This document shows positions 28,164-48,230 of a DNA stretch of 51,812 bases, in pieces. The position numbers were made by a program, and so were the translations under genes. The notes beneath the pieces were generated by a model. The model worked only from the letters and a program-made list of their open reading frames with translations, had not been told where the DNA came from and did not search any database. The stretch spans positions 1-51,812 of the IMG/VR virus record IMGVR_UViG_3300027847_002828; one strand, written 5' to 3'. The DNA comes from a virus. Taxonomy: Duplodnaviria > Caudoviricetes. Each line of letters opens with the position of its first letter. Position 1 is the first letter of the stretch.

Positions 28164-28184
28164 GGCCGATACGGACCCGCTGCC

Positions 28185-28217
28185 AAGCCCCGCTGGACTA
28201 CGGTTCAGCGGGGCTTT
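28185..28217 (+). terminator. Intrinsic terminator with cUACGg tetraloop
   Basis: aagccccgctggac-tacg-gttcagcggggcttt. Confidence 0.7.
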
Positions 28218-28661: not shown

Positions 28662-28958
28662 ATGGCTATGGAATACACAGTTGCACAGTTGCAGAGTACG
28701 GAGGCTAGCAGCCTGGCGGACGATCTTGCATGGTTGCAAGGTAACCGGGTTACCCACTTTATCGAAGAGGATGGTGAGTTGGTATCCTGCCACGGTGAGT
28801 TTGTTGGTGATGAGCCTAGCCTTTGGCCAAGCGGTCTTGGTACGGAACAACACGTTGACCACCATGCCCAGTGGTACGTTGATGCTGTTGGTATCTCTCT
28901 TGTCAGCCGTACTGCTGGCAAGGTTTACATGCCTACCTTGGGTATCCCGATTGGCTAG
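28662..28958 (+). CDS. Hypothetical protein
   Basis: SD GAGGA; acidic 98 aa. Confidence 0.5.
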   Translation: MAMEYTVAQLQSTEASSLADDLAWLQGNRVTHFIEEDGELVSCHGEFVGDEPSLWPSGLGTEQHVDHHAQWYVDAVGISLVSRTAGKVYMPTLGIPIG

Positions 28959-29111
28959 CAGGATAGCCTGGGACGCTTGTTACCGACCCACCACCACCAT
29001 GGTCAGAAGCACACCTAGTGTTCCTGGCCATGGTAGGGAGGCGGGGATGTCTGGCTTGGGCTACTTGAGTATGCCGCCAGAGCAACCTAAGCCGCCAGAA
29101 AGAGAGCAACC

Positions 29112-29378
29112 ATGACTCAAATACTCTGGACTGCCGCCAATTTAGCAGCGATGGCACTGTTCGTATGGATGACCCTGAGACCCAAGCAGAAAGGAGAACT
29201 GGACTACACGATCACGGCTAGTCCTCCAGAGAGTGAGGCTGGTGGGTTCGATCTTGAGCCGCCAATGGCTAGTCGCTTGCACGGCAACCCAGGCTGCACA
29301 AAGGGCCATCTGCCTGCTGAGTACGCTGAGAAACTGGGTAAGAAATTACACATTGTCTACGGTTCACACAAAGACTAA
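29112..29378 (+). CDS. Hypothetical protein with N-terminal TM helix
   Basis: ILWTAANLAAMALFVWM followed by RPKQK. Confidence 0.5.
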   Translation: MTQILWTAANLAAMALFVWMTLRPKQKGELDYTITASPPESEAGGFDLEPPMASRLHGNPGCTKGHLPAEYAEKLGKKLHIVYGSHKD

Positions 29379-29395
29379 CGAGAAGGAAAGCAACG

Positions 29396-30262
29396 ATGAA
29401 TGAAGCACAACGCTACCCACTGACTGGTCAACAAGTCTTCTGGGACAACGCACCCACACCCCGTGAGGATCTTCGGAAGGTTCTCGATGCCCACAATCTG
29501 TCTGCTCTGCTGCCAGACGAGGTGACTAATGAGAAGGCTCTGAGACAGGCACTCTCTGGGTTCACCAGTGAGGTGCCAGCACCAAAGGGGCATGTCTGGC
29601 TGATCCGTGGACTGAAGAACCTCAAGCAGAATGGGTACGAGGTCAAGCTGGAGCGGAAGGACGAGACTGAGAACGACGCTAGTCAGGCGTTCCGTGTCAA
29701 GATCTTCAACCGCTTCGTCGTCATTGAGAATGACAATCAGTCGTTCTCTGCCATCCCCATGGTGCAGGTGGACAAGGAGCAGAGGATTCAGGAACTCTAC
29801 GATGAAGCCAAGGCTACCGTTCCTGGCTGTGACGTGGGAGCCATCCTGACAAGGATCTTGAAGACCTATCGTCCGATGGTCGTATCGTTACGTCCGATGG
29901 GCGGACTGTACTGGATCCCGGACGTACACAAGGTTGCGTTCGAGTCCTTCTGCGATGACCTGTTGGCTGCGTGTCCCGGTAACGTCGTCACTCCCATGAA
30001 CTGGGAGATGACTCCCAAGGGACTGAGCCGTGTCAAGGACTCCATGCTCAAGGAGATGCAGAAGGAATGCCAGTCACTGCTGGTTGATGTCCTCGATCCC
30101 ACCCTTGGACACGAGGCTATGGACAACAGGCTGAGACGGTGCATCGAACTTCAGGATGAAGTGACCCACTCTGACGAGATACTCGGTGAGTTCAGCGAGA
30201 CTCTCAATGCGATTCTTGCTTCAGCCAGACAAGCTGCCACACACGGACTGCTGAATTCCTAG
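29396..30262 (+). CDS. DUF6744/DUF3150-like protein
   Basis: VSLRPMGGLYWIP motif with C-terminal coiled coil; directly upstream of the AAA-vWA pair. Confidence 0.6.
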   Translation: MNEAQRYPLTGQQVFWDNAPTPREDLRKVLDAHNLSALLPDEVTNEKALRQALSGFTSEVPAPKGHVWLIRGLKNLKQNGYEVKLERKDETENDASQAFRVKIFNRFVVIENDNQSFSAIPMVQVDKEQRIQELYDEAKATVPGCDVGAILTRILKTYRPMVVSLRPMGGLYWIPDVHKVAFESFCDDLLAACPGNVVTPMNWEMTPKGLSRVKDSMLKEMQKECQSLLVDVLDPTLGHEAMDNRLRRCIELQDEVTHSDEILGEFSETLNAILASARQAATHGLLNS

Positions 30263-30302
30263 TAAGTCACCACAAGGACGCGGGCCACAAGGAGAGACTG
30301 AG

Positions 30303-31484
30303 ATGGTATCAATGGCTAATGCTACTGGCTGGGTTACAGCCCAAGTTGGCGAGACTCCCCTGTTCTCTGGGTCGCCTGGCTCAGTGAAGACTGAGGTTGC
30401 CAAGGCTTTCGTTCGCTGGGCTGGGAGGCAACCCTTCTGCCTCATTGGGTCGATCATCGACGCACCTGACGTAGGTGGCTACCCCGGCATCGTGGAGGTG
30501 GATGGTAAGAGGCATTGTGAGATGATGCCCCTTGACTGGGCGATGAAGACACATGATCAGCCCTCTGCCCTGATCATCGACGAGCTGACTACCAGCCCAC
30601 CACCTGTGCAGGCTGCCATGCTCCGCATCATCTGTGAGCGGAAGATTGGCAACTATGACCTGCCAGATGACCTGTGGATCATCTCCATGTGCAACCCTCC
30701 TGGCTGTGCAGCTAACGGGTTCGAGCTTGAGCCTCCGATGGCCAACAGGCTGGGTCACTACAAATGGAAGACTCCGTGGGACACGGTAATGGCTGGATGG
30801 AGAAACGGACTGAACTTCCCTGACGCTGATTACCCTGAGGTCCCTGACAACTGGATGGAGTACCAGCCAGCCATTGGGAATCTCTGTGCAGCCTTTCGTG
30901 AGCGGAAGCCTGAGTTGTTCGAGCCTGCTACCGACAGTGCTGGCAACATGAAGCTCTCTGACTCGGAGCAGGGTGGTGCATACGGGACTGCCCGTAGTTG
31001 GACTGCCCTACAGAAAGTCTGGGCTGGCCTTGAGTCAGTCGGTCTTGGTGACGAGGAGAAGTTTGAGGCTGGCGTAGCCTATGTCGGTGTCGATGCTGCT
31101 GCTGAGTTCGTCACCTACTGCAAGGAACTGGACCTGCCTGATCCTGAAGAGTGGCTGACTGCCTTCCATGACAACCCTTCTGCCGACTTCACTCCGCTAG
31201 ACAGGCCTGACCTGACGATTGCTTTCCTTGGCAGCTTGGAATACGCCGTCAAGAAAGACAACACCAAGGAACGGTGGGAAGCAGCGATGGCTCTTCTCAA
31301 CAGCCTTGTCACCAAGCAGGGACAGAAGGTGTTTGTCGTCGAGACTGGACAGGCACTCCACGGCAAGGACAGTGACGGTGTCAGCTATGCGAAGCACAAC
31401 TATACCCTGCCTGCAACACTCGGTGTGGAGCTTCAGTCCATGCTGCGTGCCAGGCTCAACGCCAGTGACAGAAGGAGTGCATGA
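30303..31484 (+). CDS. MoxR-type AAA+ ATPase
   Basis: GSPGSVKT (variant Walker A), LIIDEL, PPMANRL, TARSW. Confidence 0.85.
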   Translation: MVSMANATGWVTAQVGETPLFSGSPGSVKTEVAKAFVRWAGRQPFCLIGSIIDAPDVGGYPGIVEVDGKRHCEMMPLDWAMKTHDQPSALIIDELTTSPPPVQAAMLRIICERKIGNYDLPDDLWIISMCNPPGCAANGFELEPPMANRLGHYKWKTPWDTVMAGWRNGLNFPDADYPEVPDNWMEYQPAIGNLCAAFRERKPELFEPATDSAGNMKLSDSEQGGAYGTARSWTALQKVWAGLESVGLGDEEKFEAGVAYVGVDAAAEFVTYCKELDLPDPEEWLTAFHDNPSADFTPLDRPDLTIAFLGSLEYAVKKDNTKERWEAAMALLNSLVTKQGQKVFVVETGQALHGKDSDGVSYAKHNYTLPATLGVELQSMLRARLNASDRRSA

Positions 31485-32701
31485 TGGGTCAGAAGTTTGG
31501 AATCGACGAGAGTAGGTTCGTAGTTTATCAACAACTCCCTTATCTACAGAGGCACATCAATTCCCTTATCCCGGTAGAGTCACCGGGTCTGGGTACATGC
31601 GCCATGGACCAGCATGGTCGTCTATACTACGACCCTGACGTGTTCACTAATTGGACACTGAAAGAGTGCGGTGGGGTATGCCTCCACGAGCTACTCCATG
31701 ACGTGCTCAACCACTGTAGCAGGGCTAAGGACCTGTTTGGGGACCATCCCTCACAGGAACAGCTTGAGAAGTGGAACATTGCCTGCGACATCGTGATCAA
31801 CCCCATAGTCAGGGATGCTAACTTCAACCTGCCAGAAGGCTGCGTCTGGCCCTCTGACTACGGGTTCGACGAAGGCCTGACGGAGCTGGAATACTACCAA
31901 GCTCTGCCAGACAAGCCTGAGCGACCGGGACGTAAGACTCCTGGTGACGGTGACGGAGGTGATCCTAGCGACTCACCTGAAGGTGGCTCCTGCTCTGACG
32001 GGCAGGAAAGGGATTGGGAGCTTGGCCCACCCACCAAGGGTAACCCCGGCATGAACGGGGTGGACAAGAAGATTCTTCAGGCGCAGACAGCCAAGTCTGC
32101 TGAAGAACACTCGAAGACCAAGGGTTCGCTGCCGGGTGCTATCTCCCGTCTGTGCGACGATATCCTTCGCCCGACTGTTGACCCGAGGAAGCTGCTCCAA
32201 TCGGCTGTAAGGTATGCTGTTGCCTCTGTGAGGGGTCACCAGAACCTGAACTGGAAGCGTCCGTCACGACGACAGGTTGCCGGGTGCGGTATGCTGCCGT
32301 CTCGACAGGATCCTCTTCCCAAGGTTGCGATACTGGCTGACACGTCAGCTAGTATGAACAAGAAGGACCTAGAGATGGCACTCGGTGTCATCGACAAGGT
32401 TCTGACCGCACACCAGACCAGCATCACGGTCTACGCTGGTGATGCTTCACTGGGTGTGGCTCAGGACGTCTTCAACGTGAAGAAGGTTCAGTTTGATCAG
32501 GCTGGTGGAGGTACTGACATGGGTGGCCTGGCCACTGAGATTCAGGAACTCTCCGACCCTGATGTGATCATCATCTGTACCGATGGAGAGACTGACTGGC
32601 CGACTGAGAAGCTGAGGGCCAAGACGGTGGCTTGCGTCACCCGTGAGTCGAACTACTACCCAGTTCCTGACTGGATGACGAAGGTCCAGCTTGAAGTATG
32701 A
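31481..32701 (+). CDS. Metallopeptidase-like plus vWA domain protein (DUF2201-like)
   Basis: HELLH (HExxH), WNIACDIVIN; MIDAS DTSASM, GGGTD, TDG. Confidence 0.88.
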   Translation: MMGQKFGIDESRFVVYQQLPYLQRHINSLIPVESPGLGTCAMDQHGRLYYDPDVFTNWTLKECGGVCLHELLHDVLNHCSRAKDLFGDHPSQEQLEKWNIACDIVINPIVRDANFNLPEGCVWPSDYGFDEGLTELEYYQALPDKPERPGRKTPGDGDGGDPSDSPEGGSCSDGQERDWELGPPTKGNPGMNGVDKKILQAQTAKSAEEHSKTKGSLPGAISRLCDDILRPTVDPRKLLQSAVRYAVASVRGHQNLNWKRPSRRQVAGCGMLPSRQDPLPKVAILADTSASMNKKDLEMALGVIDKVLTAHQTSITVYAGDASLGVAQDVFNVKKVQFDQAGGGTDMGGLATEIQELSDPDVIIICTDGETDWPTEKLRAKTVACVTRESNYYPVPDWMTKVQLEV

Positions 32702-32718
32702 CCACAAGCTGCTGCCGA

Positions 32719-32767
32719 TAGCAGGGTGGCGGCGGGCGGAGAGTTCCGCTTGCCGTCGCCACTGCTA
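32719..32767 (+). promoter_or_regulatory. Long GC-rich hairpin (processing site or terminator)
   Basis: tagcag..gtggcggcgggcgga / tccgcttgccgtcgccactgcta, no U-tract. Confidence 0.5.
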
Positions 32768-32816
32768 AGGCACGCCGACACCGTACACCTACACCACTAA
32801 ACATAAGACGACAACC

Positions 32817-33281
32817 ATGAGCTATAAAGAACGCCGGATGGCCGAACAATATCTGAAGACTGACCTTAGTGAGATACTAGACAAACTTGAGGAATCTTCC
32901 GAAAGGCCTATAGGCCGACGTAACGCTAGGAGTGTTGCTGCCGGGTTTGTAGTAAATCTACAGAACCACATTCAGAACAATTACCCCCCGATAAGTAAGC
33001 CTAAAAGCGACACGGCGAGAGCAACGCACATAACGTGTCCTGATTGTCATGCTATACGTTGCTCTAGTTTCACTCTGGTACAACACATCATGAGCATGCA
33101 CTCCCGCATGATAGGCATTGATTACAACTCACCTAAACACGGCCTGCGCTGCGTATGTGGAAAGACCTTCAAGGGTAAGACGGGGCTAGCTGCACACCTG
33201 TCTTACCAGCACCGAATTGGTACACTAGAGTCTCACTGGGCAACCGGCACCACAACCATGTTCTTGGAAGGAAAGCTATGA
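32817..33281 (+). CDS. Protein with two C2H2-type zinc fingers
   Basis: CPDC-x9-LVQHIMSMH and CVCGKTFKGKTGLAAHLSYQH. Confidence 0.7.
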   Translation: MSYKERRMAEQYLKTDLSEILDKLEESSERPIGRRNARSVAAGFVVNLQNHIQNNYPPISKPKSDTARATHITCPDCHAIRCSSFTLVQHIMSMHSRMIGIDYNSPKHGLRCVCGKTFKGKTGLAAHLSYQHRIGTLESHWATGTTTMFLEGKL

Positions 33282-33895
33282 CCAAACCAGTATTGACAGA
33301 GGGACACATCCATAGACAGACATCTAGGGATGAGAACGGGAACCACAAACATCTAAAAGGTAAGTGTTGCCCAGTGTGTAAGCAGGGAGCCAACTTCAGA
33401 ATCGACGTGATGCTCCAGGGTTATCTCACTGATGAGGGGCTAGTGGTCTCGAAAGGACAGGAAGACAGCATAGCAGACTACTCCAAAGTCTCCTGTGCTA
33501 ACCGTAACATGGCGGTCGAGGGTGACTGCAAATGGTACGGGTACTACCGTGATATGGAAGTCATGGACACAGAGACGTGGCCTGAGTTCAAGGAGGGAGA
33601 CAGAGTCATCAGTTTCGGATCAAGACAGAACTCTGGCTGGAAACAGACATGGGAGTGTGCTGTCTACGTTGCAAAGCAGAGGCGCAGGGATGGAGTGGTG
33701 ACATGGAGACGTGATGGAGAGCCATTCCTAAGCACCACTAATGTTTCCGTTGCACATAAATACTGTAGTAAGAAGCAGAGGGAGATCGAAGAAGCCGATG
33801 GGGTCAAGCTGAGGATTATGCAGGGCATCAAGCGTGGTACTGTGATTCTCAATTCCGACACCGCTACCGACCACCTGATGAGAGGGGGAGCGTAA
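33278..33895 (+). CDS. Hypothetical protein (Zn-ribbon-like Cys pairs)
   Basis: CPVC...C...C; coupled ATGA. Confidence 0.6.
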   Translation: MTKPVLTEGHIHRQTSRDENGNHKHLKGKCCPVCKQGANFRIDVMLQGYLTDEGLVVSKGQEDSIADYSKVSCANRNMAVEGDCKWYGYYRDMEVMDTETWPEFKEGDRVISFGSRQNSGWKQTWECAVYVAKQRRRDGVVTWRRDGEPFLSTTNVSVAHKYCSKKQREIEEADGVKLRIMQGIKRGTVILNSDTATDHLMRGGA

Positions 33896-33900
33896 GAGAT

Positions 33901-34090
33901 AGGGTGATCCCGCCCTTAACGGCGATAACCCTGTGTCCATCAAGATGCACAGGGTGCGTAGCCAGGGGATCGGTATGCTCAGAGAGCCGTGGGAAGAACC
34001 TTCTGCTAAGGAGCCAGAGGGTCGCGTCATTGAAACAGTGGCGTGCTTTCCGAGACTGACACCACCACAGTCTGCCTGATCCTGAGCGGT
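33901..34090 (+). ncRNA. Candidate structured intergenic RNA
   Basis: Multiple stems: accctgtg/cacagggt, ggatcgg/ctgatcc, gcgtcattg/cagtggcgt, agactg/cagtct. Confidence 0.35.
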
Positions 34091-34122
34091 GGATTTTATA
34101 CACAATATTCTAAGGACGACTG

Positions 34123-34479
34123 ATGTATCACACTGAAATGCAAGCGTGCCAACACAGCCTTCTATGTGCAGCTCAGTTAGCAAGGGATCATATTGCCATG
34201 CATGTAGGCCTCACTCGGCCTGACCTGCCAGACATGGAGGTTCTGAAAGTACTCGGCAAGCTGGACACTGCCATCCAGAACATGACTATGCCCGGTCTGC
34301 GGCCAGAGGAGATGCAGCACTGGGATGAGTATGAGGAGTTCCCTGTAGCAGACTGGAGGGAGGAGGTTGTGAACGACAATACCCGCATGGGGTATCACGA
34401 GTGGGCTGACTGCGCTGAGGCAGTCCGTGACGAGGAGGAGTATGACAAGGAACAGACTACAACAGAGGAGGAGGTCTAA
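34123..34479 (+). CDS. Acidic hypothetical protein
   Basis: FPVADWREEVVNDNTRMGYHEW; SD AAGGA. Confidence 0.65.
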   Translation: MYHTEMQACQHSLLCAAQLARDHIAMHVGLTRPDLPDMEVLKVLGKLDTAIQNMTMPGLRPEEMQHWDEYEEFPVADWREEVVNDNTRMGYHEWADCAEAVRDEEEYDKEQTTTEEEV

Positions 34480-34481
34480 GT

Positions 34482-34709
34482 ATGAGAGGCACACAACCAA
34501 AGCACCCGGATGTCTACGTCCCACTGAATGGTGAGGACGGCAACGCCTTTGCAATACTGGGTCGGGTCACTCAAGCCTTGAAGAGTGCTGGTGTATCCCG
34601 TGAGGAGATCAAAGCGTTCCGCCTGGAGGCAACGTCTGGTGACTACAACAACCTGCTGCAAGTTGTCCTGTCATGGATCAACGAGGGCGGCGAAGAGGAG
34701 GACGAGTGA
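34482..34709 (+). CDS. Conserved small phage protein
   Basis: LNGEDGNAFAILGRV...ALKSAG...EATSGDYNNLL. Confidence 0.75.
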   Translation: MRGTQPKHPDVYVPLNGEDGNAFAILGRVTQALKSAGVSREEIKAFRLEATSGDYNNLLQVVLSWINEGGEEEDE

Positions 34710-35491
34710 TGCCGAAGGTTTGTGCCTACCTGCGTGTCAGCAAGGACGAACAGAGCCTCAACGGCGAGTCTCTGGATGATCAGGCTGCAAGGTCTACGGC
34801 ATACTTCGATCTTCTCAAGACCATGCCCACTTCAGACTCCGGTCTGGAGTGGGGAGGGTTCTTCTTTGAGAAGGGAGAGAGTGCGTGGAAGACTAGGCTC
34901 GTTGATCGTGAGGAGGGACGTCGGCTCAACAAGATCCTTGAGCGTGACGATCACATTGTATTCCTTCGGATGGACAGAGCCTTCCGATCAGTGCAGGACT
35001 TCACGACAACGCTCCCGATGTGGGAGCAGCGTGGGATTACGATTCACTTCATCGACCAGTCCGTGAACCTGTCCACGCCGAACGGAAAGTTCTTCGCAAA
35101 CGTACTCGTTGCTGTGGCACAGTGGGAGAGCGACATCAAGAGTCTGCGTAACAGGGAGGCTGCCGCCAAGCGTAAGTCCGAGGGAAGGATGAACACACGT
35201 CAGCCGCCAATAGGTTACATGGCAGTAGGGAAGCGTAACGTACTGGTCAAAGACCCTGCCCAGATAGCCATCATGCGTCTCATATTCTTCATGAGGACCA
35301 AGAATGGCTACAGCTACGACCTCATCAGTGACAAGGTTGAGGAACTACTGTCCCAACGGGACGGCAGAGTCTTCCGCCGACGCAACGGGTTCGATGGCTC
35401 ACGTCCTTGGCCAAGAGACAGGGTGCGCAAGGCGTACCACAGGTACGAGAAGATCGTTGCGTCCGACGAGCCTGTCTACACGGAGAGGTAG
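34709..35491 (+). CDS. Serine recombinase (resolvase domain plus short C-terminal domain)
   Basis: AYLRVSKDEQ (catalytic Ser), RMDRAFRS, STPNGK, PPIGY; start at the TGATG overlap. Confidence 0.9.
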   Translation: MPKVCAYLRVSKDEQSLNGESLDDQAARSTAYFDLLKTMPTSDSGLEWGGFFFEKGESAWKTRLVDREEGRRLNKILERDDHIVFLRMDRAFRSVQDFTTTLPMWEQRGITIHFIDQSVNLSTPNGKFFANVLVAVAQWESDIKSLRNREAAAKRKSEGRMNTRQPPIGYMAVGKRNVLVKDPAQIAIMRLIFFMRTKNGYSYDLISDKVEELLSQRDGRVFRRRNGFDGSRPWPRDRVRKAYHRYEKIVASDEPVYTER

Positions 35492-35865
35492 TCTTCGGCA
35501 TGACCGAGGGCTACCATCTCCTGGTTCAGGTTGACCAGTGTGCCGTCAGGCTTACGCTTGCCGATGATCTCTATAAGCCAGCGACCATACTTGCCAGAAG
35601 CGTCCATATCGTTTTTGGAACTCTGCTTGTGAGTCTTCACCGAGTGTGACCACATCTCTGTGGACAGTGAATACTTGTTCAGCAGATTCGTCAACGCTAT
35701 CTTGGCCCGCTTGCCCTCATCGGTCTTCATCTCCTGTGCGTTGATCGCATAGAGCCTTGCCTTCATGCGGAAGGCTATGCCAAAGCCGCAGTCAACGATG
35801 ACCTCCACGCTGTCTCCGTCGATCACTCTCATGATCTGAGCGTTGTAGACGTATCGTGTTTTCAT
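35476..35865 (-). CDS. Thermonuclease (SNase-like)
   Basis: RVIDGDS, RLYAINAQE, KYGRWL, NLNQEMVALGHA. Confidence 0.88.
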   Translation of the reverse strand: MKTRYVYNAQIMRVIDGDSVEVIVDCGFGIAFRMKARLYAINAQEMKTDEGKRAKIALTNLLNKYSLSTEMWSHSVKTHKQSSKNDMDASGKYGRWLIEIIGKRKPDGTLVNLNQEMVALGHAEDYLSV

Positions 35866-36550: not shown

Positions 36551-36751
36551 CTAACCGGCGTTGATGGGTGCTTCACGGTGCATGATCTGCCGGATGGCTG
36601 CTGCCTGTACCGGATCAGTCTCGGCGTGCAGCTTGAGCATCACGCGATCAAGGATCGCCATGAAGTTCGTACTGGCGTCCGACTGGCGTGCCAGACGTTC
36701 GCCACTTGCTGCCGTCAACAACTCTTGCAGGTTCACATTTCCTTCGGCCAT
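36551..36751 (-). CDS. Small helical hypothetical protein
   Basis: TAATG-coupled to the protease gene, SD GGAG. Confidence 0.65.
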   Translation of the reverse strand: MAEGNVNLQELLTAASGERLARQSDASTNFMAILDRVMLKLHAETDPVQAAAIRQIMHREAPINAG

Positions 36752-37722
36752 TACTTAGTCTCCCGTGGAACCAGACGCAGGCGTACCCGCGCCTTGAAGC
36801 TGGATGTCCAATCTTCAAGATGAGACAGCCGTCTAGTGATGTCAGTCGTGTTGGCATCGGCTCCATCCTTGCCGCCTTTTCCAGCCGGACCAGCAGGCCC
36901 GACCAGCTTATCTTTGTTCAGCTCAAAAAGTTTGAGAAAATCCAGCTCAGGTGTTACGTCGCCCTTAACCCTGGTGCCCGGCAGCCCTTCGAGCACGGCG
37001 ATGCGTGCCTGCATGGCCTCGACAGTTTTCTCAAGCCTCTCGATAGCCTCAGCCATCTTGTTGTCGCTGCCCAGCCTGTCTGGACGGTCGTAACCTTTCA
37101 GGAACTTGGCCAGTTGGCTTGGTGTGGAGGCGTATGCCTCCGTGTCCTTGTCGCTACCATGGGAGATGACACCCACCAGTTCACCGGCCTTGTTGAATAC
37201 CCCGCCACCACTGTCACCGTTCCCGAACTTCCCCTCCTTCACGGAGTAGTGGGCACGGAGAACCTTGAGGTTGCTGGGAGTGGTGGTCCCGAGATAGCTA
37301 AAAATCTTGGGACGAAGCGTCTTACCCGCCCGGAACCCGTAAGCCCTGACGGACACCTCTTTCCGGGGTAACGACGACCCAACCCCCCCAGGAGCCGACG
37401 ACAAATTTGTAACTTTGGGTGACGGATCTGTCACCACGAACAACGCCATGTCGAGATGCTTGTCAACGCGGACCCACTTGGCTGCGTACTGTGTGCCATG
37501 TCGGTCATAGACATCGACGGTCTTTCCGACCTCTGCTCCACCGTGTGCCACGCTGAGTCCGACCGTCGCGTCACCCACGCGGACAATCGTGCCGGAACAA
37601 CCAGCCACCCGAACACTGGCGTTCTCTGCCCTTACCCCAGCCAGGCACCAGGGGGTTTCGGCAGTGGCCAAAGCCACGCAGATAGCCAGTGCTGCCAAGG
37701 TTTTCCGTTTCCGTACCACCAT
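36751..37722 (-). CDS. Exported trypsin-like serine protease with coiled coil and short collagen-like repeat
   Basis: Signal peptide; triad SVAHG / LDMAL / GDSGGG; GPAGPAGKGGKDGAD. Confidence 0.85.
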   Translation of the reverse strand: MVVRKRKTLAALAICVALATAETPWCLAGVRAENASVRVAGCSGTIVRVGDATVGLSVAHGGAEVGKTVDVYDRHGTQYAAKWVRVDKHLDMALFVVTDPSPKVTNLSSAPGGVGSSLPRKEVSVRAYGFRAGKTLRPKIFSYLGTTTPSNLKVLRAHYSVKEGKFGNGDSGGGVFNKAGELVGVISHGSDKDTEAYASTPSQLAKFLKGYDRPDRLGSDNKMAEAIERLEKTVEAMQARIAVLEGLPGTRVKGDVTPELDFLKLFELNKDKLVGPAGPAGKGGKDGADANTTDITRRLSHLEDWTSSFKARVRLRLVPRETK

Positions 37723-37755
37723 GACCCACAGTCTAGTACTACCCTAGACCGTGTG

Positions 37756-37953
37756 TCAACTCTTGTCCTTTCCGTTCGCAAGTTTCCGTTTGACGACCTC
37801 GAATCCCCCGGCCAGAAGCATAAGTTCGACGATGGTCTTGACCTCTGTCTCGTCAAAGGCATTGGAGTTGAGGTAGAGAAAGATCGTGATCCCGGCGAAC
37901 ACTACGATCAGCCGGACGATTGACCAGATGGGGTGTTCTGTGTCGCGTGGCAT
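37756..37953 (-). CDS. Small two-TM membrane protein (holin-like)
   Basis: 65 aa, two hydrophobic segments, basic C-tail KRKLANGKDKS; SD AAGGAG. Confidence 0.55.
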   Translation of the reverse strand: MPRDTEHPIWSIVRLIVVFAGITIFLYLNSNAFDETEVKTIVELMLLAGGFEVVKRKLANGKDKS

Positions 37954-37963
37954 GATAACTCCT

Positions 37964-38098
37964 TGCTACAATGGATGCACTCCCAGACATCAGAGGGATC
38001 TCACGGTCTGGGACAGGCGAGCCACGGACGGCTCGCTGATTTTTTATAACAGACGGCGTGATGACGCAACTCGCCAGGGACCTGGTGAGTAACGTCGT
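37964..38098 (+). ncRNA. Candidate CsrA-binding sRNA (GGA-loop hairpins) with extended -10 promoter
   Basis: TGcTACAAT at 37964-72; hairpins with AGGGA (37994), ACGGA (38024) and AGGGA (38076); T-run 38040-45. Confidence 0.5.
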
Positions 38099-38152
38099 CC
38101 AAAAGTGACCGCCACGACAGGGGTTTGGGCGACGAAATTCTCCACTTTTTTT

Positions 38153-38359
38153 TCACGAAGTCTTCCACACGCTCTCTTGTGCCAGGTCTGTGATAAAGTC
38201 TTCTGCCCAGCAGTTGAGTTCCCACAATTCATTCTTCGTCACCGAACGACCTTCAAACTTGGCCGAGTCGATACAAGCTGAGATAAACGTCGGGGCCTCT
38301 GCTGGTACAACGTCGATAAGCTCGATGTCGGTGAGCTTACTTGGCTCTAGCATCTTCAT
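38153..38359 (-). CDS. Hypothetical protein
   Basis: TFISACIDSAKFEGRSVTKNELWELN; SD AAGGA. Confidence 0.55.
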   Translation of the reverse strand: MKMLEPSKLTDIELIDVVPAEAPTFISACIDSAKFEGRSVTKNELWELNCWAEDFITDLAQESVWKTS

Positions 38360-39048: not shown

Positions 39049-39097
39049 GTCTAAACCCCTCAGAATACTGTCTTCGGGTGGCCCATTATACCAGCGA

Positions 39098-40849
39098 TCA
39101 CTGGTCTGGTGAACCCGAGTGTACCCCGAGGTGGTGCTGGAACTCCTCGTTGCTTATGGCGTCCTGCGCCCACTCAAGGTACTGGGAAGGCATGTCCTTG
39201 ATCTTCATGCCACGGTACTTGCCGAACCGCATAACGAACTCTGATCCAGACTGAGTCTTCAGCTTGCTGATGATCGCGCCTGCCTGAGCCTTGCTACACT
39301 GGACGGCAAGCTGCCTGTCCACCCCAAGGTCAAGCATGTAGGACACCTGTTTGTCACTGGCTCCGCCTACCAACTTCCCCATGTGCCTGATAGCCCGTGA
39401 CTGATCCCCGAATGGGTCAACCCAATCCGTCGAGTAGCGTGCCGTAGCCCTTATCTTGGCACGCTTGGCACGTTCCGAACGCCTATCCTCCGCCAGCTTC
39501 TCAAGTCGCAACCGTGCTTCTTCGAGAGAATCTGCCGTGGTGGAAGGCTTCTTCTTCTTCCGCATGGTCTTGACGGCCTCAGCGATCACCTCGTCACTGT
39601 AGCTGCTGCCAAGCACGTTGGCTGATGACACGAGCTTGTGCCTGCCGGAGTTGCCCACGAAATCAAGCACCGTAACCCTGGGCTTAGCACTATCAGCGAT
39701 TGCCTTCACCCTGTCGGCGGCATGGGGTATGGGGTCCACAACCCCAGCCAGGGTCCTCGTCCCACGCCCGATGCACTGGCAATAAAGTGACAGAGACTTC
39801 GTGGGTCGGGCCATGGCAATCACCGCACAGGCGGGTGCGTCGAAGCCTTCGGTGAAGACACCAACACCCACTAGCATCTGCAAGCGACCTTGCTGGAAGT
39901 CTCTCACCGCACGCTTGCGGTCGTCGTCCCGCGTCTCGGCCAGTATGCACTGTGCTGTCACCCCGTCATGCCTGTTCAGCACGTCGGTAAGCCTGCGTGC
40001 GTGGTGCTTGTTCACTGCGAACACTAGGGTCGGCCTGCCGTTAGCCTCCTTCACCGTGGGGTCAGCGATGGCGTGAAGCATCTTCTCCTGCTTCTGTAGC
40101 AGGTGAAGTTCTCCAGCACCCATGCCCATGGCAGCGGCCAAGTCCTGTTCGTTGAAGTCGCCAGACTTGGTACGGACCTTGCTGAAGTCGAGTGACTCGA
40201 TGACGACGTACCGTTGCTCGATGTCAACCAGCCACCCCTCACTGATCCCCTGCCGTATGTCCATCTGGTAGGCGACAGTACCAAAGGTAGCACCAAGGCC
40301 ACGCTTGTCGTGCCTGTTGGGGGTAGCCGTTACACCTAGTAACTTCGTGTCACTACCCTGACTGAAGTATTCGATAACCTTCTGGTAGCTGTTACTAGGT
40401 GCGTGGTGTGCCTCGTCAACTATGATGCAGTCGAACTCGGAAGGATCAAACCGCTCCCGCCTAGCCTTGCGTGCAAGAGTCTGGACCGATGCTATCACAG
40501 CGTTGCTCTTAGCCATCAGGCCGTGACGACTGGCTCGCCGTTCACCCATCTCTACGTTGGGTACGGAGCCTGTATGCAACCCGGTCTTGTCCCGTGCCTG
40601 GTCAACCAGTTCCTTACGGTGTGCCAAGATGAGGACTCGCCCAGTACCCTGCTCCCACCTACGGACAACCTCTGAAAAGATCACCGTTTTTCCCAACCCC
40701 GTCGCCATCACCAGCAGGGTACTTGGAGAGCGAGTCCACTCATCGAAGATGGCATCAACCGCTTCCTGTTGGTATGGACGCAGCCGGAATGCTCCGGATA
40801 CGGATGGCGGTTCCACAACGACAGAATCAAACAGTCCTAGTTGAGACAC
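39098..40849 (-). CDS. SF2 DEAD/DEAH-box helicase (ResIII/Irc3-like) with C-terminal DUF3820-like domain
   Basis: LRPYQ, ATGLGKT, DEAHH, TAT, TEGFD, QCIGRGTR; FGKYRGMKIKDMPSQYLEW. Confidence 0.92.
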   Translation of the reverse strand: MSQLGLFDSVVVEPPSVSGAFRLRPYQQEAVDAIFDEWTRSPSTLLVMATGLGKTVIFSEVVRRWEQGTGRVLILAHRKELVDQARDKTGLHTGSVPNVEMGERRASRHGLMAKSNAVIASVQTLARKARRERFDPSEFDCIIVDEAHHAPSNSYQKVIEYFSQGSDTKLLGVTATPNRHDKRGLGATFGTVAYQMDIRQGISEGWLVDIEQRYVVIESLDFSKVRTKSGDFNEQDLAAAMGMGAGELHLLQKQEKMLHAIADPTVKEANGRPTLVFAVNKHHARRLTDVLNRHDGVTAQCILAETRDDDRKRAVRDFQQGRLQMLVGVGVFTEGFDAPACAVIAMARPTKSLSLYCQCIGRGTRTLAGVVDPIPHAADRVKAIADSAKPRVTVLDFVGNSGRHKLVSSANVLGSSYSDEVIAEAVKTMRKKKKPSTTADSLEEARLRLEKLAEDRRSERAKRAKIRATARYSTDWVDPFGDQSRAIRHMGKLVGGASDKQVSYMLDLGVDRQLAVQCSKAQAGAIISKLKTQSGSEFVMRFGKYRGMKIKDMPSQYLEWAQDAISNEEFQHHLGVHSGSPDQ

Positions 40850-43050: not shown

Positions 43051-43242
43051 CTACCTCGCTTGTTGCTCACCATGTTGCATTTTGGCAGCGACCTCTCCTC
43101 GCAGGATTGAAACATCCTCAGGGAAGTCGAACCCCAGCTTGGCCTTGCCGTCGAAGGTCCGTATCAGGATCACCGTGGATACCCGACCCTGCTCATCGGT
43201 CAGGTTCACACGACCCTCCTCACGCACCGTCAGAACTAGCAT
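43051..43242 (-). CDS. csrA: Carbon storage regulator CsrA/RsmA homolog
   Basis: MLVLTVREEGRV...AKLGFDFPEDVSILRGEV (retains the conserved Arg of the I-x-R-x-E motif). Confidence 0.85.
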   Translation of the reverse strand: MLVLTVREEGRVNLTDEQGRVSTVILIRTFDGKAKLGFDFPEDVSILRGEVAAKMQHGEQQAR

Positions 43243-43525
43243 GGCTGCCCTCCTTGAGTCCGTTACTGCTAGAGAACTTGACCACCCGACGCATCAGTGC
43301 ATGCGCTGTACGCATGTCACCACCGAGACGGCCGTAGGTTTCGAGTGCTGCCTGTGCAGCCTCGGTACCGCCCATCATGTGGACATACTCACTCGTCTTG
43401 GCAAGCCTGTTGAGTACCACGTTTACGTCAATCGTAGACTCCGCCTTGCCCTTCGCCCGCTTCTTACGCCACGCCGCCCTCAATTTTCGAGAGTGGGCTT
43501 TTCTGCGTTCTTCAGTCCATGCCAT
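43220..43525 (-). CDS. Basic hypothetical protein
   Basis: MAWTEERRKAHSRKLRAAWRKKR; first gene after the promoter. Confidence 0.65.
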   Translation of the reverse strand: MAWTEERRKAHSRKLRAAWRKKRAKGKAESTIDVNVVLNRLAKTSEYVHMMGGTEAAQAALETYGRLGGDMRTAHALMRRVVKFSSSNGLKEGSHASSDGA

Positions 43526-43590
43526 GTCGTGTGCCTCAAAAAAAGTGGCACGAGGCTCAGGCCCCGCGAAATTTCCATGCCCGCAATTTA

Positions 43591-43631
43591 TTTATAGCCG
43601 CGCCAATTCGAGTCGTCAAGACCGACGGTCT
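43591..43631 (-). promoter_or_regulatory. Sigma70 promoter with abutting palindromic operator candidate
   Basis: TTGACG-N17-TATAAA (43619-43591); AGACCG-A-CGGTCT at 43619-43631. Confidence 0.6.
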
Positions 43632-43660: not shown

Positions 43661-43879
43661 TCAATCCAGAAGATCGGCGGGACGTATCTCGACGGCTGTC
43701 GCAATTCTCTGCAACGCCGGGATTGAGGGCCAACGCTCTCCACGTTCGTACTTGTACCAGGAGTCGCCGTGGAGGTCGGCCTTGTATGCGGCTTCAACAA
43801 CACTCAGTCCGATTCGCACCCTGTGCGAGCGGAGCCTTTTGCCAAACCGTTTTTGGCTATTAGTGTGTTCTCTTGTCAT
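43661..43879 (-). CDS. Cro/C1-type HTH repressor
   Basis: FGKRLRSHRVRIGLSVVEAA...WYKYERGERWPSIPALQRIATAVEIRPADLLD. Confidence 0.85.
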   Translation of the reverse strand: MTREHTNSQKRFGKRLRSHRVRIGLSVVEAAYKADLHGDSWYKYERGERWPSIPALQRIATAVEIRPADLLD

Positions 43880-43886
43880 TAGACGT

Positions 43887-43915
43887 GTTGTATAATGTCG
43901 TAGGCGAAAAGTCAA
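43887..43915 (-). promoter_or_regulatory. Promoter giving a probably leaderless repressor mRNA
   Basis: TTGACT-N17-TACAAC, 7 nt before ATG 43879, no SD. Confidence 0.55.
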
Positions 43916-44012: not shown

Positions 44013-44147
44013 CTAGTAGCCGCTGGACTTCTTCTTGCCGCTCTTTTTGCCCATCTCGGCCTTGCCCTTGACGTTCTTGACGTACTTGCCGAACTTCGGC
44101 TTGGATGCACTGGATTCGGAGTAACCGCCACTCTTTTTCTTGGCCAT
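44013..44147 (-). CDS. 44-aa Lys-rich basic microprotein (not in ORF track)
   Basis: SD GAGGTG; MAKKKSGGYSESSASKPKFGKYVKNVKGKAEMGKKSGKKKSSGY. Confidence 0.7.
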   Translation of the reverse strand: MAKKKSGGYSESSASKPKFGKYVKNVKGKAEMGKKSGKKKSSGY

Positions 44148-44162: not shown

Positions 44163-47100
44163 TTAGTATTGTGCTCTGCGAGCCTCCTCGGCCCGCTCCC
44201 TGGCTCGCTTGGCAAGCATACGCTTCAGGTTCATGAGACGCTCCGCGTGCTCCCTCTCACCCGGGGCCATTGTAGCAATCACTTCCTCTGGCAGGTAGAC
44301 GTTCCTGAATGTTTTGCCGCCCGGTATCTCTAGGATGGATTCCTCAGCAGCCTCTCGAAGCAAAGCCTCCTGCGTCCTGGGAGGAATATCGCTCACCCGG
44401 AAGCCTGTGCCCAGGTTCGCAGCCGTGCCAAGCACACCCTTCCGTGGGTCGGTCAGCGTTCTTGCTGTCGTCAGGAACCTGGAGAAGGGACTGTTGAGCA
44501 TCAGGTGCTCGAAGGTCTGGCTGCCCAGAGGCTCAACCCTCCCAGTACTCTCGCCCGTCATCAGGTCACTGATGTTAGACAACGTCCTGCCCATGGTCGG
44601 GTCGAGGTCAGTCAGAGGACGTCCTCCCATCGGACCCTTCTGGAAGAACGTCTGTCCCGAGAGTGCCTCAAGCGGGAACTTGAGCATGGGATTAAGACGT
44701 GATGCCATCTCCATCAAGGGGTCCGTGAGGACATCTCCGCCCGTGGTAGGCATGAAGGTGAACGGGTCCATGGACATCAGGTCCAGGGTTGTCAGGTACC
44801 TGGGATCACCTTCCGGTCCCTGCATCATTTCCGGCAGCTCAACAGCCATGGTCTGTTGTAGGTGCTCTGGGAGAGGACGTGTCTGGTCACCCTTCAGACT
44901 CCGGGTGCCACGCATCACCTTCGCCAGCCGTCCGCCGGGTCGTTCCGCCAGCTCCTTGATTACGAAGGGCATCTGCCTGCTGGAGAACTTGTAGAAGGGG
45001 AACAGCCTCTGTGCCGCATTCCTCTCGAACGACGTGTACGCCTTGGACGAGTAGTCCACCTGCGCTGCATTGATCCGCTTCATGGCTGCCGCCGGGTCAA
45101 TGCCACGCCGCAACGACTCGATGAACGGGGTCAGTCGGTTCAGATCCTCAACGTACTGGCCCAGCATTTCACCAGCAGCCGATGGACCGTACCCGGACAC
45201 AGCCCTGCCGCTGACACCACGCTGCTCCGTCAGCATGGACCTGACATTCAGGGGACTACTGGCTTCCGGAACCCTGTTGCCGCGACCGAACCACGTCGCG
45301 ATAGTTTCGGAAATCGTCGCAGGAGTGTCCCTGAGAGCCGACTCCGGTCCACCAACGCCACCGACGTATCTGCCGCCAACCCCTTCCGTCAACAACTCGC
45401 CAGTCACATCGTCTACGTTCGAGACAGCACCAGCCCGCTCGAACACCTCGCCCATCTGACGCTTGGGAGACTGGATGTAATACATCTCGCGGACCAGGTC
45501 TGTGGCCACCTCGTCGTTCAAGGCTCTGGTTTCCACTCCCCTCACAACCCTGTCCGCGTGCATCCTCCGCACAGCGGGAAGATTGGATGCGCCATCCATC
45601 ACCCCGCCCTTGGCAACGCTCCTCGCCGTTAGTAATGCTGGCCCCATACGGTCCATGTCCACCAGGCCAGCCACCCAGTTTCTGATCTGTCCGGAGACGC
45701 CGTTGCGTGTATGGAACGCCAGCCACGGTGCGGTCAGCATCCCCTTTATCATATTGGTAGCACTATCAAACTGCTTGGCAATCTCGCTAACGACCTCGGG
45801 ACTCCTGAACGACTGGTGGAACCGGGTGAGATCGTCCGCCATGCCTGCGGGGATGTGCATCCCTGCTATTTCCCCGATGACCGTCTTCATTTCCTCCGGG
45901 TCATCGACGTGCCTGCCCATCAGCTTGGCTATCTTCTGGTAAACCTCAGCACCTTCCCCTGTCTCTGAGACGAACCGGGTAGACTTCAGATTCAGACCAG
46001 CAACCAGCTCGCTAACCGTCTTGCTCCCCTCGCTTCTTACCGGGGTAGCCTTGGCGGCGAGGGTCCTGACGGCTGCCTTGGTGCTCTCGATGTAGTCGTT
46101 GAACGTACTGACACGCCGGGTCAGGGCGCTGACCGGGTCAACATAGATGCCAGCCTGTATCGCGTCCGGGTCCATCCCCTTCAGCCATTTCGCCAGCGCC
46201 TCCCACCTGTTTGCCTGGGTGGCCCCAGTCGCTACGTCAACGATCTTCTGTCCCGTCGCCGGATCAGTCAGGTATGTGAGGGACTTAGTGTCCTCAAACA
46301 TCTCGTCAGCCAGATGGCCCCAGCGATCACCCAGATGCTGTGCCGCGCCCTTCATGTTGCCAGTCTCAAGGAGATGGGACAGGCGTGGGTCCTGCGTCAT
46401 CTCCCTGACTGCACCTGTGCCAGACTCGGTGAACCCTCGCGTGGATGCCTCTCTCCCTGCTAAGTGTGGGTCCGTCGCATACAGGGGGCCACGACTGCCA
46501 GCAGACTCAGCGCCTTCCCGAGCAGCCAGCCTGGCAAAGTAGTTTTCAGGAGGCACGAACTCGTCAGGTATCTCCTTCAAGGCTCGCTTGGCATCCTCAA
46601 TGGCCTGCCACTTGATCAACCCCTCCTCGTCAAAAGGCAACAACCCTTCTCTCGTCCCGGCGTGATCCCGAATCACTCCCGGCAGTTCCATGGCTTCTGC
46701 CAGAGCCTTCTCGGCCTCTGTTCTACGCGCTGCATGGAGGGCGTATTCAGGACCGTACAGCTCCATGAAGTTAGCGCCCCACTCGTCCGCCTCACCCTTC
46801 ATTGAGCCGAGAGTTCTGCGGACGCTTTCCACCATGTGGAAAGTTTCATCGCTGACGCCTTTCGTCCGCAGCAAATCACTGGGCATTTCCATCAGCTTGT
46901 ATGTCGCTGTGACCACGTCCGGGTGCGACATCAACGCCTTGTCGGTGTCCCTCTTGAGAGTTTTCAGGGCGTCCTTGCCATAGCCCTTGGTCACCAACTT
47001 GCCAGTATCAGGGTCGGTGTACCTGACCCATGCCTGGCCAGTGTCCTCGATCTTCAGGACCTTGGCGTTGACGGGAAGGTCGATGCCTGACACCCAGTCA

Positions 47101-48224
47101 CCCTCGATGGGCAAGCCCTCATCCAGCCCTGCCCTGACCTCATGGAGAGGACGTTCAAAATTATGAACCCGCTCAAGGTCTTCCAGGTTCCTGCCAAGCA
47201 CCGTCTCCATCTCACTACCGGCTTCCCTGCCGAGCGCCTCTGCCTGGATCTTCTTGTCATACAGTGCCTGAGCGGTTTTCTGTCCGGCTTCCGTTGTCGT
47301 GTCCATCACGCTGGGCCTGAACAGTCTGCTCACAGCCCGGCCACCAGCCGTCTTGTATTTCAGGTGATGGCCGACCGCATCCAACGCCGCGTCAGCCCTC
47401 TTCCCTGTAAACGGTATGGTTGGAGCACCCATGTGCAGGCCGGGTAGACCGGGAGCCTTCCACCGGGCGAAGCTGCCTACTGGCTCGAACAGGATGTCGT
47501 CAAGTTTCTGCCCTACGTCGGTGGCGGCTTCCGAGAACAGATGACGCTGCCCAATCGCGACGTCCGCCTGTCTCGCCACGTCCGAACCGGCGTCCATCAT
47601 CTCGTCGGAATACTTGATCATGTCAAAAGGAGTCACCTCGCTGCGTGCCTGGCTGGCACCGACACGGGTGACGTCATCAAATGCTTCCGAGACAGTCTTG
47701 CCACCTTTCTCAGCAGCATCTCTCGCTGTCCACGCTGCTGCCTCCATAGCCGCCTCATCCATTCCGGCCAATGATTTCCTGGTGGCGACCTTTGCCAGAT
47801 CGTCCCACTTGCCCATGTGCTTCACCACCTTGCCCGCCTTGGTGGCTGCTGATGCACCAAGGGTCAGGTAGGTTAGCGGGTCAAGCAGAACCTCGGCTGC
47901 GAAGCCAGTCAGCCCCGGCGTCCATCCGGATTCGTCCCTGCCAAATCCGACCAGCTCCTGGCCGCGTGTCCTGCCCTCCTGGCTGGTCCAGTTCCACGGC
48001 AGTAGCTGGTCAAAGGGGTTCTCAGCATGAAGGACGTCACGAACCATGGACCCCGGAATGTCCAGTATGTTCGCTGCACCTGTCAGCCCACTGATGCCAC
48101 GCTGCACCAGTGACCTGTTGACCTCCTCCTCCTCTTGGGGAGTGAGATCACGGTTCAGGTGTCTGGCACTTCGTCCACCAAGAGGAGCCAGACTGGCGAG
48201 CGGGGGCAGTCTTGGAAGCGGCAT
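44163..48224 (-). CDS. Large internal virion/ejection protein (C-terminal LPD38-like region)
   Basis: 1353 aa helical; AFHTRN, DYSSKAYTSFER...FPFYKF, LNPMLKFPLE..SG. Confidence 0.7.
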   Translation of the reverse strand: MPLPRLPPLASLAPLGGRSARHLNRDLTPQEEEEVNRSLVQRGISGLTGAANILDIPGSMVRDVLHAENPFDQLLPWNWTSQEGRTRGQELVGFGRDESGWTPGLTGFAAEVLLDPLTYLTLGASAATKAGKVVKHMGKWDDLAKVATRKSLAGMDEAAMEAAAWTARDAAEKGGKTVSEAFDDVTRVGASQARSEVTPFDMIKYSDEMMDAGSDVARQADVAIGQRHLFSEAATDVGQKLDDILFEPVGSFARWKAPGLPGLHMGAPTIPFTGKRADAALDAVGHHLKYKTAGGRAVSRLFRPSVMDTTTEAGQKTAQALYDKKIQAEALGREAGSEMETVLGRNLEDLERVHNFERPLHEVRAGLDEGLPIEGDWVSGIDLPVNAKVLKIEDTGQAWVRYTDPDTGKLVTKGYGKDALKTLKRDTDKALMSHPDVVTATYKLMEMPSDLLRTKGVSDETFHMVESVRRTLGSMKGEADEWGANFMELYGPEYALHAARRTEAEKALAEAMELPGVIRDHAGTREGLLPFDEEGLIKWQAIEDAKRALKEIPDEFVPPENYFARLAAREGAESAGSRGPLYATDPHLAGREASTRGFTESGTGAVREMTQDPRLSHLLETGNMKGAAQHLGDRWGHLADEMFEDTKSLTYLTDPATGQKIVDVATGATQANRWEALAKWLKGMDPDAIQAGIYVDPVSALTRRVSTFNDYIESTKAAVRTLAAKATPVRSEGSKTVSELVAGLNLKSTRFVSETGEGAEVYQKIAKLMGRHVDDPEEMKTVIGEIAGMHIPAGMADDLTRFHQSFRSPEVVSEIAKQFDSATNMIKGMLTAPWLAFHTRNGVSGQIRNWVAGLVDMDRMGPALLTARSVAKGGVMDGASNLPAVRRMHADRVVRGVETRALNDEVATDLVREMYYIQSPKRQMGEVFERAGAVSNVDDVTGELLTEGVGGRYVGGVGGPESALRDTPATISETIATWFGRGNRVPEASSPLNVRSMLTEQRGVSGRAVSGYGPSAAGEMLGQYVEDLNRLTPFIESLRRGIDPAAAMKRINAAQVDYSSKAYTSFERNAAQRLFPFYKFSSRQMPFVIKELAERPGGRLAKVMRGTRSLKGDQTRPLPEHLQQTMAVELPEMMQGPEGDPRYLTTLDLMSMDPFTFMPTTGGDVLTDPLMEMASRLNPMLKFPLEALSGQTFFQKGPMGGRPLTDLDPTMGRTLSNISDLMTGESTGRVEPLGSQTFEHLMLNSPFSRFLTTARTLTDPRKGVLGTAANLGTGFRVSDIPPRTQEALLREAAEESILEIPGGKTFRNVYLPEEVIATMAPGEREHAERLMNLKRMLAKRARERAEEARRAQY

Positions 48225-48230
48225 GACTGA

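Follow-up and report, generated by a model that had tools for sequence, protein, structure and literature searches.

A predicted plus-strand RNA in a gap of a minus-strand operon

We analyzed the complete IMG/VR provirus record IMGVR_UViG_3300027847_002828 (51,812 bases, estimated to be ~91% complete; hereafter the window) with a focus on a gap of 199 nt (37954-38152). The gap lies inside a minus-strand operon, between an open reading frame (ORF) of 68 aa and a gene for a 65-aa protein, and stays non-coding in related phages, where it measures 200-234 nt. On its plus strand it carries an extended -10 element and two hairpins, H1 and H2, the second of which is followed by a T-run. The same genome encodes a protein of the CsrA family. 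We consider it likely that the gap holds a genuine plus-strand gene for a small RNA (sRNA), which would be transcribed from ~37979 to ~38045 against the surrounding operon. Modelled from 7 nt past the -10 to the end of the T-run, the transcript measures 64-67 nt. The features of the locus are listed in Table 1.

Table 1 Features of the gap, of its surroundings and of the window.
Feature	Position	Strand	Remarks
Extended -10 TGCTACAAT	37964..37972	+	Putative promoter element; predicted RNA start ~37979
Hairpin H1	37981..38013	+	8-bp stem 37981-88 / 38006-13 (folds)
Hairpin H2 with T6, intrinsic terminator	38016..38045	+	GGCGAGCC-ACGGAC-GGCTCGCT at 38016-38037, then GA and T6 at 38040-45
Hairpin H3	38069..38090	+	ACTCGCCAG-GGAC-CTGGTGAGT; downstream of the terminator, outside the conserved unit
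Hairpin H4	38094..38133	+	Long stem with variable interior (fold)
65-aa protein gene	37756..37953	-	ORF; the predicted RNA is complementary to its leader
Trypsin-like peptidase gene	36751-37722	-	Follows the 65-aa gene; Trypsin_2, E 1.6e-8
68-aa ORF	38153..38359	-	Directly upstream of the gap; in the window only
Candidate operon promoter	39085..39113	-	TTCACC-17-TATAAT with TG (promoter scan); conserved in relatives; putative function
csrA, 63-aa protein	43051..43242	-	Pfam PF02599, E 1e-7, 32.2 bits versus a cut-off of 27, residues 1-56
Gene block 1	1-23,770	-	Weak portal and terminase matches, glycosyltransferase
Gene block 2	~24,000-35,500	+	C5 methylase, DUF2201, serine recombinase
Gene block 3	35,476 to window end	-	Nuclease, trypsin-like peptidase, helicase, Gp157-like, Rad52-like, csrA, XRE helix-turn-helix (HTH), two giant ORFs

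The phage, whose window has a G+C content of ~53-61%, was detected in marine or seawater sequencing runs; the stretch is contained in 20 runs, 5 of which are RNA libraries. Relatives were gathered by protein and pattern scans and comprise five IMG/VR contigs and four metagenome stretches, one of which (L022) duplicates the sequence of one of the contigs. Including the window, 18 gap copies were obtained. They collapse into six distinct sequences of three clades, namely the window, L003, and the group L004/L006/L024/L023, and the relatives are 73-80% identical to the window across the gap region. A scan with the helicase alignment recovered the same family at 84-91% identity and then 58 loci at 35% or less, with no intermediates. 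A covariance model of the RNA unit (R1) found one copy per related genome, none in L018 and none in the 58 distant helicase loci (544,002 bases), in which a lineage-specific hidden Markov model of CsrA did not match either. Profile searches of genome contigs with the CsrA alignment and with the 65-aa protein alignment gave no matches, a viral scan with the latter returned the same five contigs and no further relatives, and a word-based protein search yielded just 8 close CsrA homologues. Among cultured phages, we found no DNA match to the gap, no tblastn match to the window CsrA and no close relative.

The first-pass annotation of the window had proposed a CsrA-titrating RNA in this gap, starting from an extended -10, and this element is indeed present. 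It abuts CTCCTT (37959-37964), the complement of the Shine-Dalgarno (SD) sequence of the minus-strand 65-aa gene, and is invariant in 6/6 distinct homologues. The sequence CTCCTTGCTACAAT is invariant as well, and the next 8 nt are variable. We observed no recognisable -35 upstream of the extended -10. A -35 would fall into the start of the 65-aa gene, and the first five codons there are nucleotide-invariant (4/4 degenerate codons compared to 17/39 overall), which is a weak hint of promoter constraint. All three matches to TGNTANAAT in the window are retained at syntenic places in the relatives. The plus strand is uncoded for 2.5 kb upstream of the -10, and the adjacent -10 is the only plausible transcript source for a terminator at H2.

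H1 had been misquoted as the arms tcccagac and gtctggga around a five-base AGGGA loop. In fact, its 8-bp stem encloses 17 nt, ATCAGAGGGATCTCACG, in which an apical mini-hairpin exposes GGA at 37996-98; at the apex, a reading as G[AGGGAU]C or G[ACGGAU]C is possible. The H1 stem differs among the clades, yet pairing is retained, and L023 re-registers the stem. The description of H2, with its ACGGAC loop and T6 run, was accurate, and the terminator scanner lists this hairpin as a plus-strand terminator. Its hexaloop occupies 38024-29 with GGA at 38026-28. Eight pairs of H2 are kept, among which there are a double change (A-U to G-C) and two wobble changes. All six sequences have ACGGA(C/A) as the loop and retain a T-run of 6-8.

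The gap folds to -76.4 kcal/mol on the plus strand (z -4.57, 0/200 shuffles as good) and to -70.6 kcal/mol on the minus strand (z -3.52), and the fold of the 69-nt H1-H2 unit has a z score of -5.31. Across H1 and H2, pairing is standard in 96/96 cells (16 pairs, six sequences), and two pairs show double changes. Eleven of these cells are G-U or U-G on the plus strand and thus A-C on the minus strand, where 85/96 are left paired; accordingly, the minus-strand folds of the relatives contain mismatches in H2. The covariation score was reached by 4/500 shuffles, a control that is lenient with six related sequences. The minus-strand sequence after H2 is CCUGUCCC, without a T-run. From the wobble pattern, the minus-strand mismatches and the T-run, which is found on the plus strand only, we take H2 to be a plus-strand intrinsic terminator. 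The same T-run speaks against an alternative named in the first-pass annotation, according to which the hairpins only terminate minus-strand transcription.

We also considered that no separate sRNA exists and that the hairpins are stabilisers, processing sites or a translation-tuning leader of the minus-strand messenger RNA (mRNA), with the T-run and the -10-like box as by-products. In line with this, the minus strand also folds better than its shuffles, contigs from RNA libraries span the gap (see below), and TGNTANAAT is no commoner than expected by chance (3 versus 1.9). In addition, the position of the -10 box next to the SD and the invariance of the first five codons would fit a conserved translation-initiation region. 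In clade C only, minus-strand H1 is followed by a U-rich UUUUAUUGU (L017 15427-15443) just before the SD of the 65-aa gene, which could be a lineage-specific attenuator. Nevertheless, we regard this explanation as unlikely. All 11 wobble cells favour the plus strand, minus-strand H2 of the relatives carries A-C mismatches, and a T-run of 6-8 after a G+C-rich 8-bp stem in all six sequences would have no role on the minus strand. Moreover, the promoter and terminator scan revealed no convincing minus-strand promoter or terminator within the gap.

The repeats might instead act at the DNA level, as repressor operators, part of a replication origin or a recombination site. Four inverted repeats within 200 bp beside replication and recombination genes are compatible with this, and relatives have the H3 and H4 interiors in opposite orientations, as recombination between repeat arms would give. 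The H1 and H2 loops, in contrast, are unflipped, the wobble pattern and the T-run belong to the RNA level, 37850-38250 contains no iterons or direct-repeat families, and the serine recombinase gene is 2.5 kb off. A role of the unit as a DNA element therefore appears highly improbable to us.

Exposed GGA loops, the phage csrA gene and possible modes of action

In the H1 and H2 loops, GGA is unpaired with a probability of ~1.0 in 5/5 homologues, and the two sites are separated by 28-30 nt, which a single CsrA dimer can span. Substitutions within the loops fall on the N positions of A-N-G-G-A-N (AGGGAU versus ACGGAU, and ACGGAC versus ACGGAA). The loop conservation for which the first-pass annotation had asked is hence seen in H1 and H2, where GGA is kept, but not in H3, the loop of which has changed. 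A third GGA inside the RNA unit occurs only in the window and in L003, where the H1 stem buries it.

GGA occurs in ~9% of the simple hairpin loops of the window (85/1002 on the plus and 96/1009 on the minus strand). Among strong terminator-like hairpins, one of six in the window has a GGA loop, namely H2, compared to 0/35 in the 58 csrA-negative phage loci (544 kb) and 0/22 in four other csrA-positive phages (F116, phi297, PSTCR8lys and Dartukuta; 127,313 bases, taken from 51 matching records). GGA loops being this rare among hairpins and terminators, exposed GGA in 2/2 loops of a given unit is unlikely to arise by chance. The unit was, however, picked by the first-pass annotation for this very feature, and among such picks some chance cases are to be expected. 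One further record, L097, labelled Acinetobacter phage MD-2021a, was left out of the comparison; its csrA region is bacterial chromosome (alaS, thrA, csrA, rnhB, purA, clpB). A looser detector of GGA-hairpin clusters fired dozens of times per genome within coding regions and was discarded as uninformative.

The csrA gene noted in the first-pass annotation is real and scores above the Pfam cut-off. In the genome search, the protein scored 30.6 bits, and the nearest Atlas clusters are viral CsrA clusters. A PDB search with the single protein gave no match; a profile search of PDB returned weak CsrA matches (E 0.012-0.18), and in the profile the window CsrA aligned end to end with the E. coli CsrA chain 1y00. 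Residues M1, L2 and R48 are invariant in 62 relatives taken from 217 matches. R48 aligns to the arginine of the VHREE segment in 1y00, and the equivalent of R6 is V6. We take the counterpart of R48 (R44 in E. coli numbering) to be the key RNA-binding arginine of the last strand, and MLxLT to be the N-terminal strand.

Each apical loop of the two-hairpin RNA would thus present an unpaired GGA in the A-N-G-G-A-N context recognised by CsrA/RsmE-type proteins, and the RNA may be bound by the 63-aa phage CsrA or by host CsrA, with one dimer per RNA. As a decoy, it would lower free CsrA. As a guide, it could bring CsrA to the ribosome-binding site (RBS) of the 65-aa gene, given that it is fully complementary to the leader up to 17 nt upstream of the GGA in the SD. 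As judged from the sequence, a phage sRNA that is bound by CsrA and acts as a decoy or guide would be the single best mechanism, to which we assign somewhat less than an even chance. It was chosen because no other reading accounts jointly for the two loops and the csrA gene. Transcription of the unit, its binding by CsrA and any regulatory outcome are what we infer from the observed sequence features, their conservation, the strand bias and the presence of csrA.

The antisense position of the unit has a ready explanation that does not involve CsrA, and this is the first of several points that weigh against a CsrA-bound RNA. The RNA could be a plain cis-antisense sRNA of the kind of lambda OOP, P22 sar or type I antitoxins that acts on the leader of the 65-aa gene and on the protease, through cleavage by RNase III, a changed fold of the leader or interference with transcription; the GGA loops would then be incidental G+C-rich kissing loops. 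The unit does not extend beyond the leader or intercistronic gap and faces the operon in convergent orientation, its target encodes a small hydrophobic protein like type I toxins and holins, and the plus-strand promoter, hairpins and terminator are conserved. The RNA contigs that bridge the gap fit as well, as they make a longer crossing transcript probable. On the other hand, the predicted start is located ~15-17 nt upstream of the SD (37959-64), leaving RBS and start codon uncovered, unlike in sar or Sok; a control site, if present, would have to be sought in the hairpins of the leader. Plain antisense action also leaves unexplained why both loops carry GGA in the A-N-G-G-A-N frame (a chance of ~9% per loop; 0/57 other terminators) and why loop changes avoid GGA, and it is compatible with CsrA binding. 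Given a real sRNA, the two modes of action do not exclude each other and are about equally likely; as a mechanism by itself, plain antisense action is the main rival to CsrA binding, and we hold it to be rather improbable, less so than a role without any sRNA.

Further points on the same side come from expression, depth of comparison and homology searches. Four metatranscriptome runs were examined as assembled contigs, which carry no strand or end information and give low, scattered cover, so that uncovered parts are uninformative. Contigs from RNA libraries (37882-38127 and 38025-38232) run across both predicted RNA ends. They fit a longer transcript, probably the minus-strand operon mRNA from the 39113-39085 site, or DNA carry-over, and neither support nor refute the sRNA, because a 65-nt RNA would not assemble in such libraries. 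The comparison is shallow, with three clades and 50/87 columns invariant, and therefore the retention of the six GGA bases is only weakly above background. The difference between clades in H1 is best read as a 2-nt indel rather than as a re-invented GGA. The first-pass annotation had suggested co-occurrence with csrA as a check: csrA was found in 4/4 related records searched, but these are syntenic relatives by common descent, with no intermediates, so that this is not independent support. The four other csrA-positive phages contain nothing similar to the unit. In addition, we ruled out H3 as a CsrA site, as it is positioned past the terminator and relatives have its loop in flipped or altered form. 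Just two exposed GGA sites per RNA are conserved, compared to many in CsrB/Rsm RNAs, and with only two sites kept, the multi-site sponge in the sense of CsrB or RsmZ that had been proposed does not hold. In Rfam, the window has 0 matches at the gathering threshold, and in E-value mode (up to 10) 37900-38200 gave just two unrelated matches (E 4.9 and 8.7). A GacA/UvrY-type box is likewise missing within 600 nt upstream of the -10, and the window as a whole has 12 matches with up to three mismatches, compared to 10.8 expected; the box is a feature of gammaproteobacterial members and may not apply to the phage's host.

A more specific proposal goes further than a CsrA-bound decoy or guide. According to it, the phage would possess a self-contained Csr module, in which CsrA works with a two-site partner RNA dedicated to it. 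The RNA would lie antisense to the leader of a cassette for the membrane protein and the secreted protease, and the pair would set the translation of this cassette. In the guide form, the RNA would carry a CsrA dimer to the leader in a manner similar to PasE (see below), and the free subunit would clamp the SD at its GGA, which is 17 nt away. In the other form, the RNA would titrate CsrA as read-through of the operon falls and would time cassette translation in this way. The cassette might serve lysis or envelope remodelling, and UCACGGAGGA as the SD of csrA in relatives and of two late genes would fit a regulon. We consider this full scheme doubtful, more so than an operon leader without an sRNA.

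Relation to known Csr and antisense RNAs

The predicted RNA resembles CsrB/CsrC and RsmX/RsmY/RsmZ in its predicted own promoter and Rho-independent terminator, in ANGGA in apical loops and in the presence of csrA in the genome. It differs from them in having two conserved sites, compared to ~5 to 22 GGA sites in CsrB/Rsm RNAs, in its size (64-67 nt versus ~110-370 nt) and in being phage-encoded and antisense within an operon. Since homology is missing and only two sites are present, it is not a member of the CsrB/Rsm family. It may, however, work like a minimal CsrB/Rsm RNA.

The consensus for CsrA/RsmE binding is WCANGGANGW in the RsmE-hcnA hairpin and RUACARGGAUGU in the CsrA ligand obtained by systematic evolution of ligands by exponential enrichment (SELEX). 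Similarly to these ligands, CCACGGA(C/A)GG in H2 matches the core CANGGANG, and AGA(G/C)GGAUCU in H1 shares their frame, with G-C in place of C-G as the closing pair. The flanks, in contrast, are G-C pairs of long stems and not short A/U-closed stems.

Lambda OOP, P22 sar, Sok, IstR-1 and OrzO are cis-antisense RNAs of phages or type I antitoxins. The predicted RNA shares with OOP, sar and the type I antitoxins that it is short (~65-77 nt) and structured, has its own promoter and terminator, and lies opposite a phage mRNA next to a gene for a small hydrophobic protein. Unlike them, it does not overlap the RBS or the start codon.

A similar geometry is seen in PasE of enteropathogenic E. coli. 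PasE is described as an sRNA with two GGA sites and CsrA-dependent stability that guides CsrA to mRNAs by pairing upstream of GGA-containing RBSs; the same preprint lists PasD2 as a prophage-encoded sRNA in CsrA complexes, and McaS, GadY and Spf as sRNAs that have one or two sites for CsrA (10.64898/2026.08.12.744399). Like PasE, the predicted RNA has two exposed GGAs, and its complementarity to the leader ends 17 nt from the GGA in the SD of the 65-aa gene. It differs from PasE in being cis-encoded and fully complementary, with no short seed, so that full pairing would bury its own GGA loops. In addition, the phage brings its own CsrA.

CsrA homologues also occur on mobile elements, as in the case of RsmQ, which is reportedly a plasmid-borne homologue on pQBR103. 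Such proteins of phages and plasmids are thought to hijack the post-transcriptional control of the host. Of these, csrA is reported for 30 of 2517 phage genomes (PMC7366521), and many phage csrA genes are described in GenBank and IMG/VR, with a proposed role in host manipulation including CRISPR-Cas repression (PMC8450108). The phage studied here is likewise a mobile element carrying csrA; the excerpts of both accounts describe the protein only and no partner RNA of the same phage. Our search of the full texts of articles found no report of a phage with both csrA and a partner RNA. If CsrA binding holds true, a phage with CsrA and a two-hairpin partner RNA would have the smallest complete Csr circuit known and would provide a natural example of a protein and its RNA that move as a pair, and its small parts (63 aa and 65 nt) would make testing easy. 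If the RNA is only an antisense regulator, it would remain of modest interest, as a conserved phage sRNA that is new and comes from a marine phage family without cultured members.

The csrA locus, the operon around the gap and the distal hairpins

The first-pass annotation had also pointed to ANGGA motifs overlapping SD sequences of phage genes. The quoted strings are present before 21011, 13736 and 30303. They do not, however, constitute evidence for a regulon. ANGGA is located within 30 nt upstream of 16/63 heuristic gene starts in the window, and this is ordinary because the SD sequences are of the GGAG type. The consensus WCANGGANGW was found 21 times in the window compared to 9.45 expected from shuffles. 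Control cores match this excess (GGT 20, GGC 19, AGA 15), so that it reflects composition and codon usage. We therefore ruled out ANGGA at SD sites as an indication of a CsrA regulon: these are ordinary SDs, and control cores are equal.

In the other two clades, the SD of csrA is UCACGGAGGA (L014 ~5955-5982; L017 ~9976-10003), and in the window this string is also found before two structural-block genes (21018-21027 and 13741-13750, minus strand). We take UCACGGAGGA to be a full match to the 10-nt CsrA/RsmE consensus. Autoregulation of CsrA via UCACGGAGGA is possible, but such sites are also simply good SDs. The start of csrA is overlapped by a 101-aa gene (43220-43525). The region before this gene (43540-43618, minus strand) has a TTGACG-17-TATAAA site and, within ~20 nt of it, a G+C-rich hairpin with T7 (43568-43549). 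The csrA operon may thereby have a terminator close to its promoter or a leader that is regulated. This hairpin covaries in the relatives with a degraded T-run, and GGCATGGAAATT ahead of it is kept in three clades. The phages F116 (L093: 3032-3238 and 20001-20372) and Dartukuta (L096: 4821-5015 and 20001-20174) each have two CsrA-like genes. One is located close to the repressor in the early region, and the other, annotated as 'CsrA-like regulator', amid structural genes.

The 65-aa protein encoded next to the gap has a strongly hydrophobic segment at residues ~9-30 and a second, weaker one according to its hydropathy. It is 71% identical in the relatives and has no Pfam or PHROG match. The N-terminus of the adjoining peptidase is hydrophobic and, judged by eye, signal-peptide-like. 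Together, the two genes (36751-37953, minus strand) might form a module for lysis or for the envelope; the Pfam scan of the 40 larger ORFs of the window revealed no endolysin family. The 68-aa ORF on the other side of the gap is an insertion in the window, as the gap directly follows a gene for a 99-aa membrane protein in the other two clades.

Beyond the terminator, the third hairpin that had been proposed as a further GGA site, H3, is present in sequence, but it is located past the T-run, and relatives do not keep the GGA on the plus strand: the plus-strand loop is GGAC in the window and TTCC, GTCC or GCCC in the relatives, that is, flipped or changed. In H4, a hairpin that the first-pass annotation had not listed, the interiors of L023 and L006 are reverse complements of each other, which shows that loop orientation is unconstrained. 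H3 and H4 are constrained as inverted repeats only, and the GGA in H3 is fortuitous. The inversions of the H3 loop and the H4 interior (38069-38133; L003, L006, L023) resemble a flip-flop between inverted-repeat arms.

At the far side of csrA, block 3 contains two giant ORFs of 1353 aa and 862 aa (44163-50819, minus strand) that lack a Pfam family and for which the sole PHROG match is a weak one to the 1353-aa ORF. Directly after the 1353-aa gene, there is a lysine-rich ORF of 44 aa (MAKKKSGGY...; 44013-44147, minus strand), which is followed by a TTGACT-17-TATACA site and then by the XRE-type HTH gene (43661-43915).

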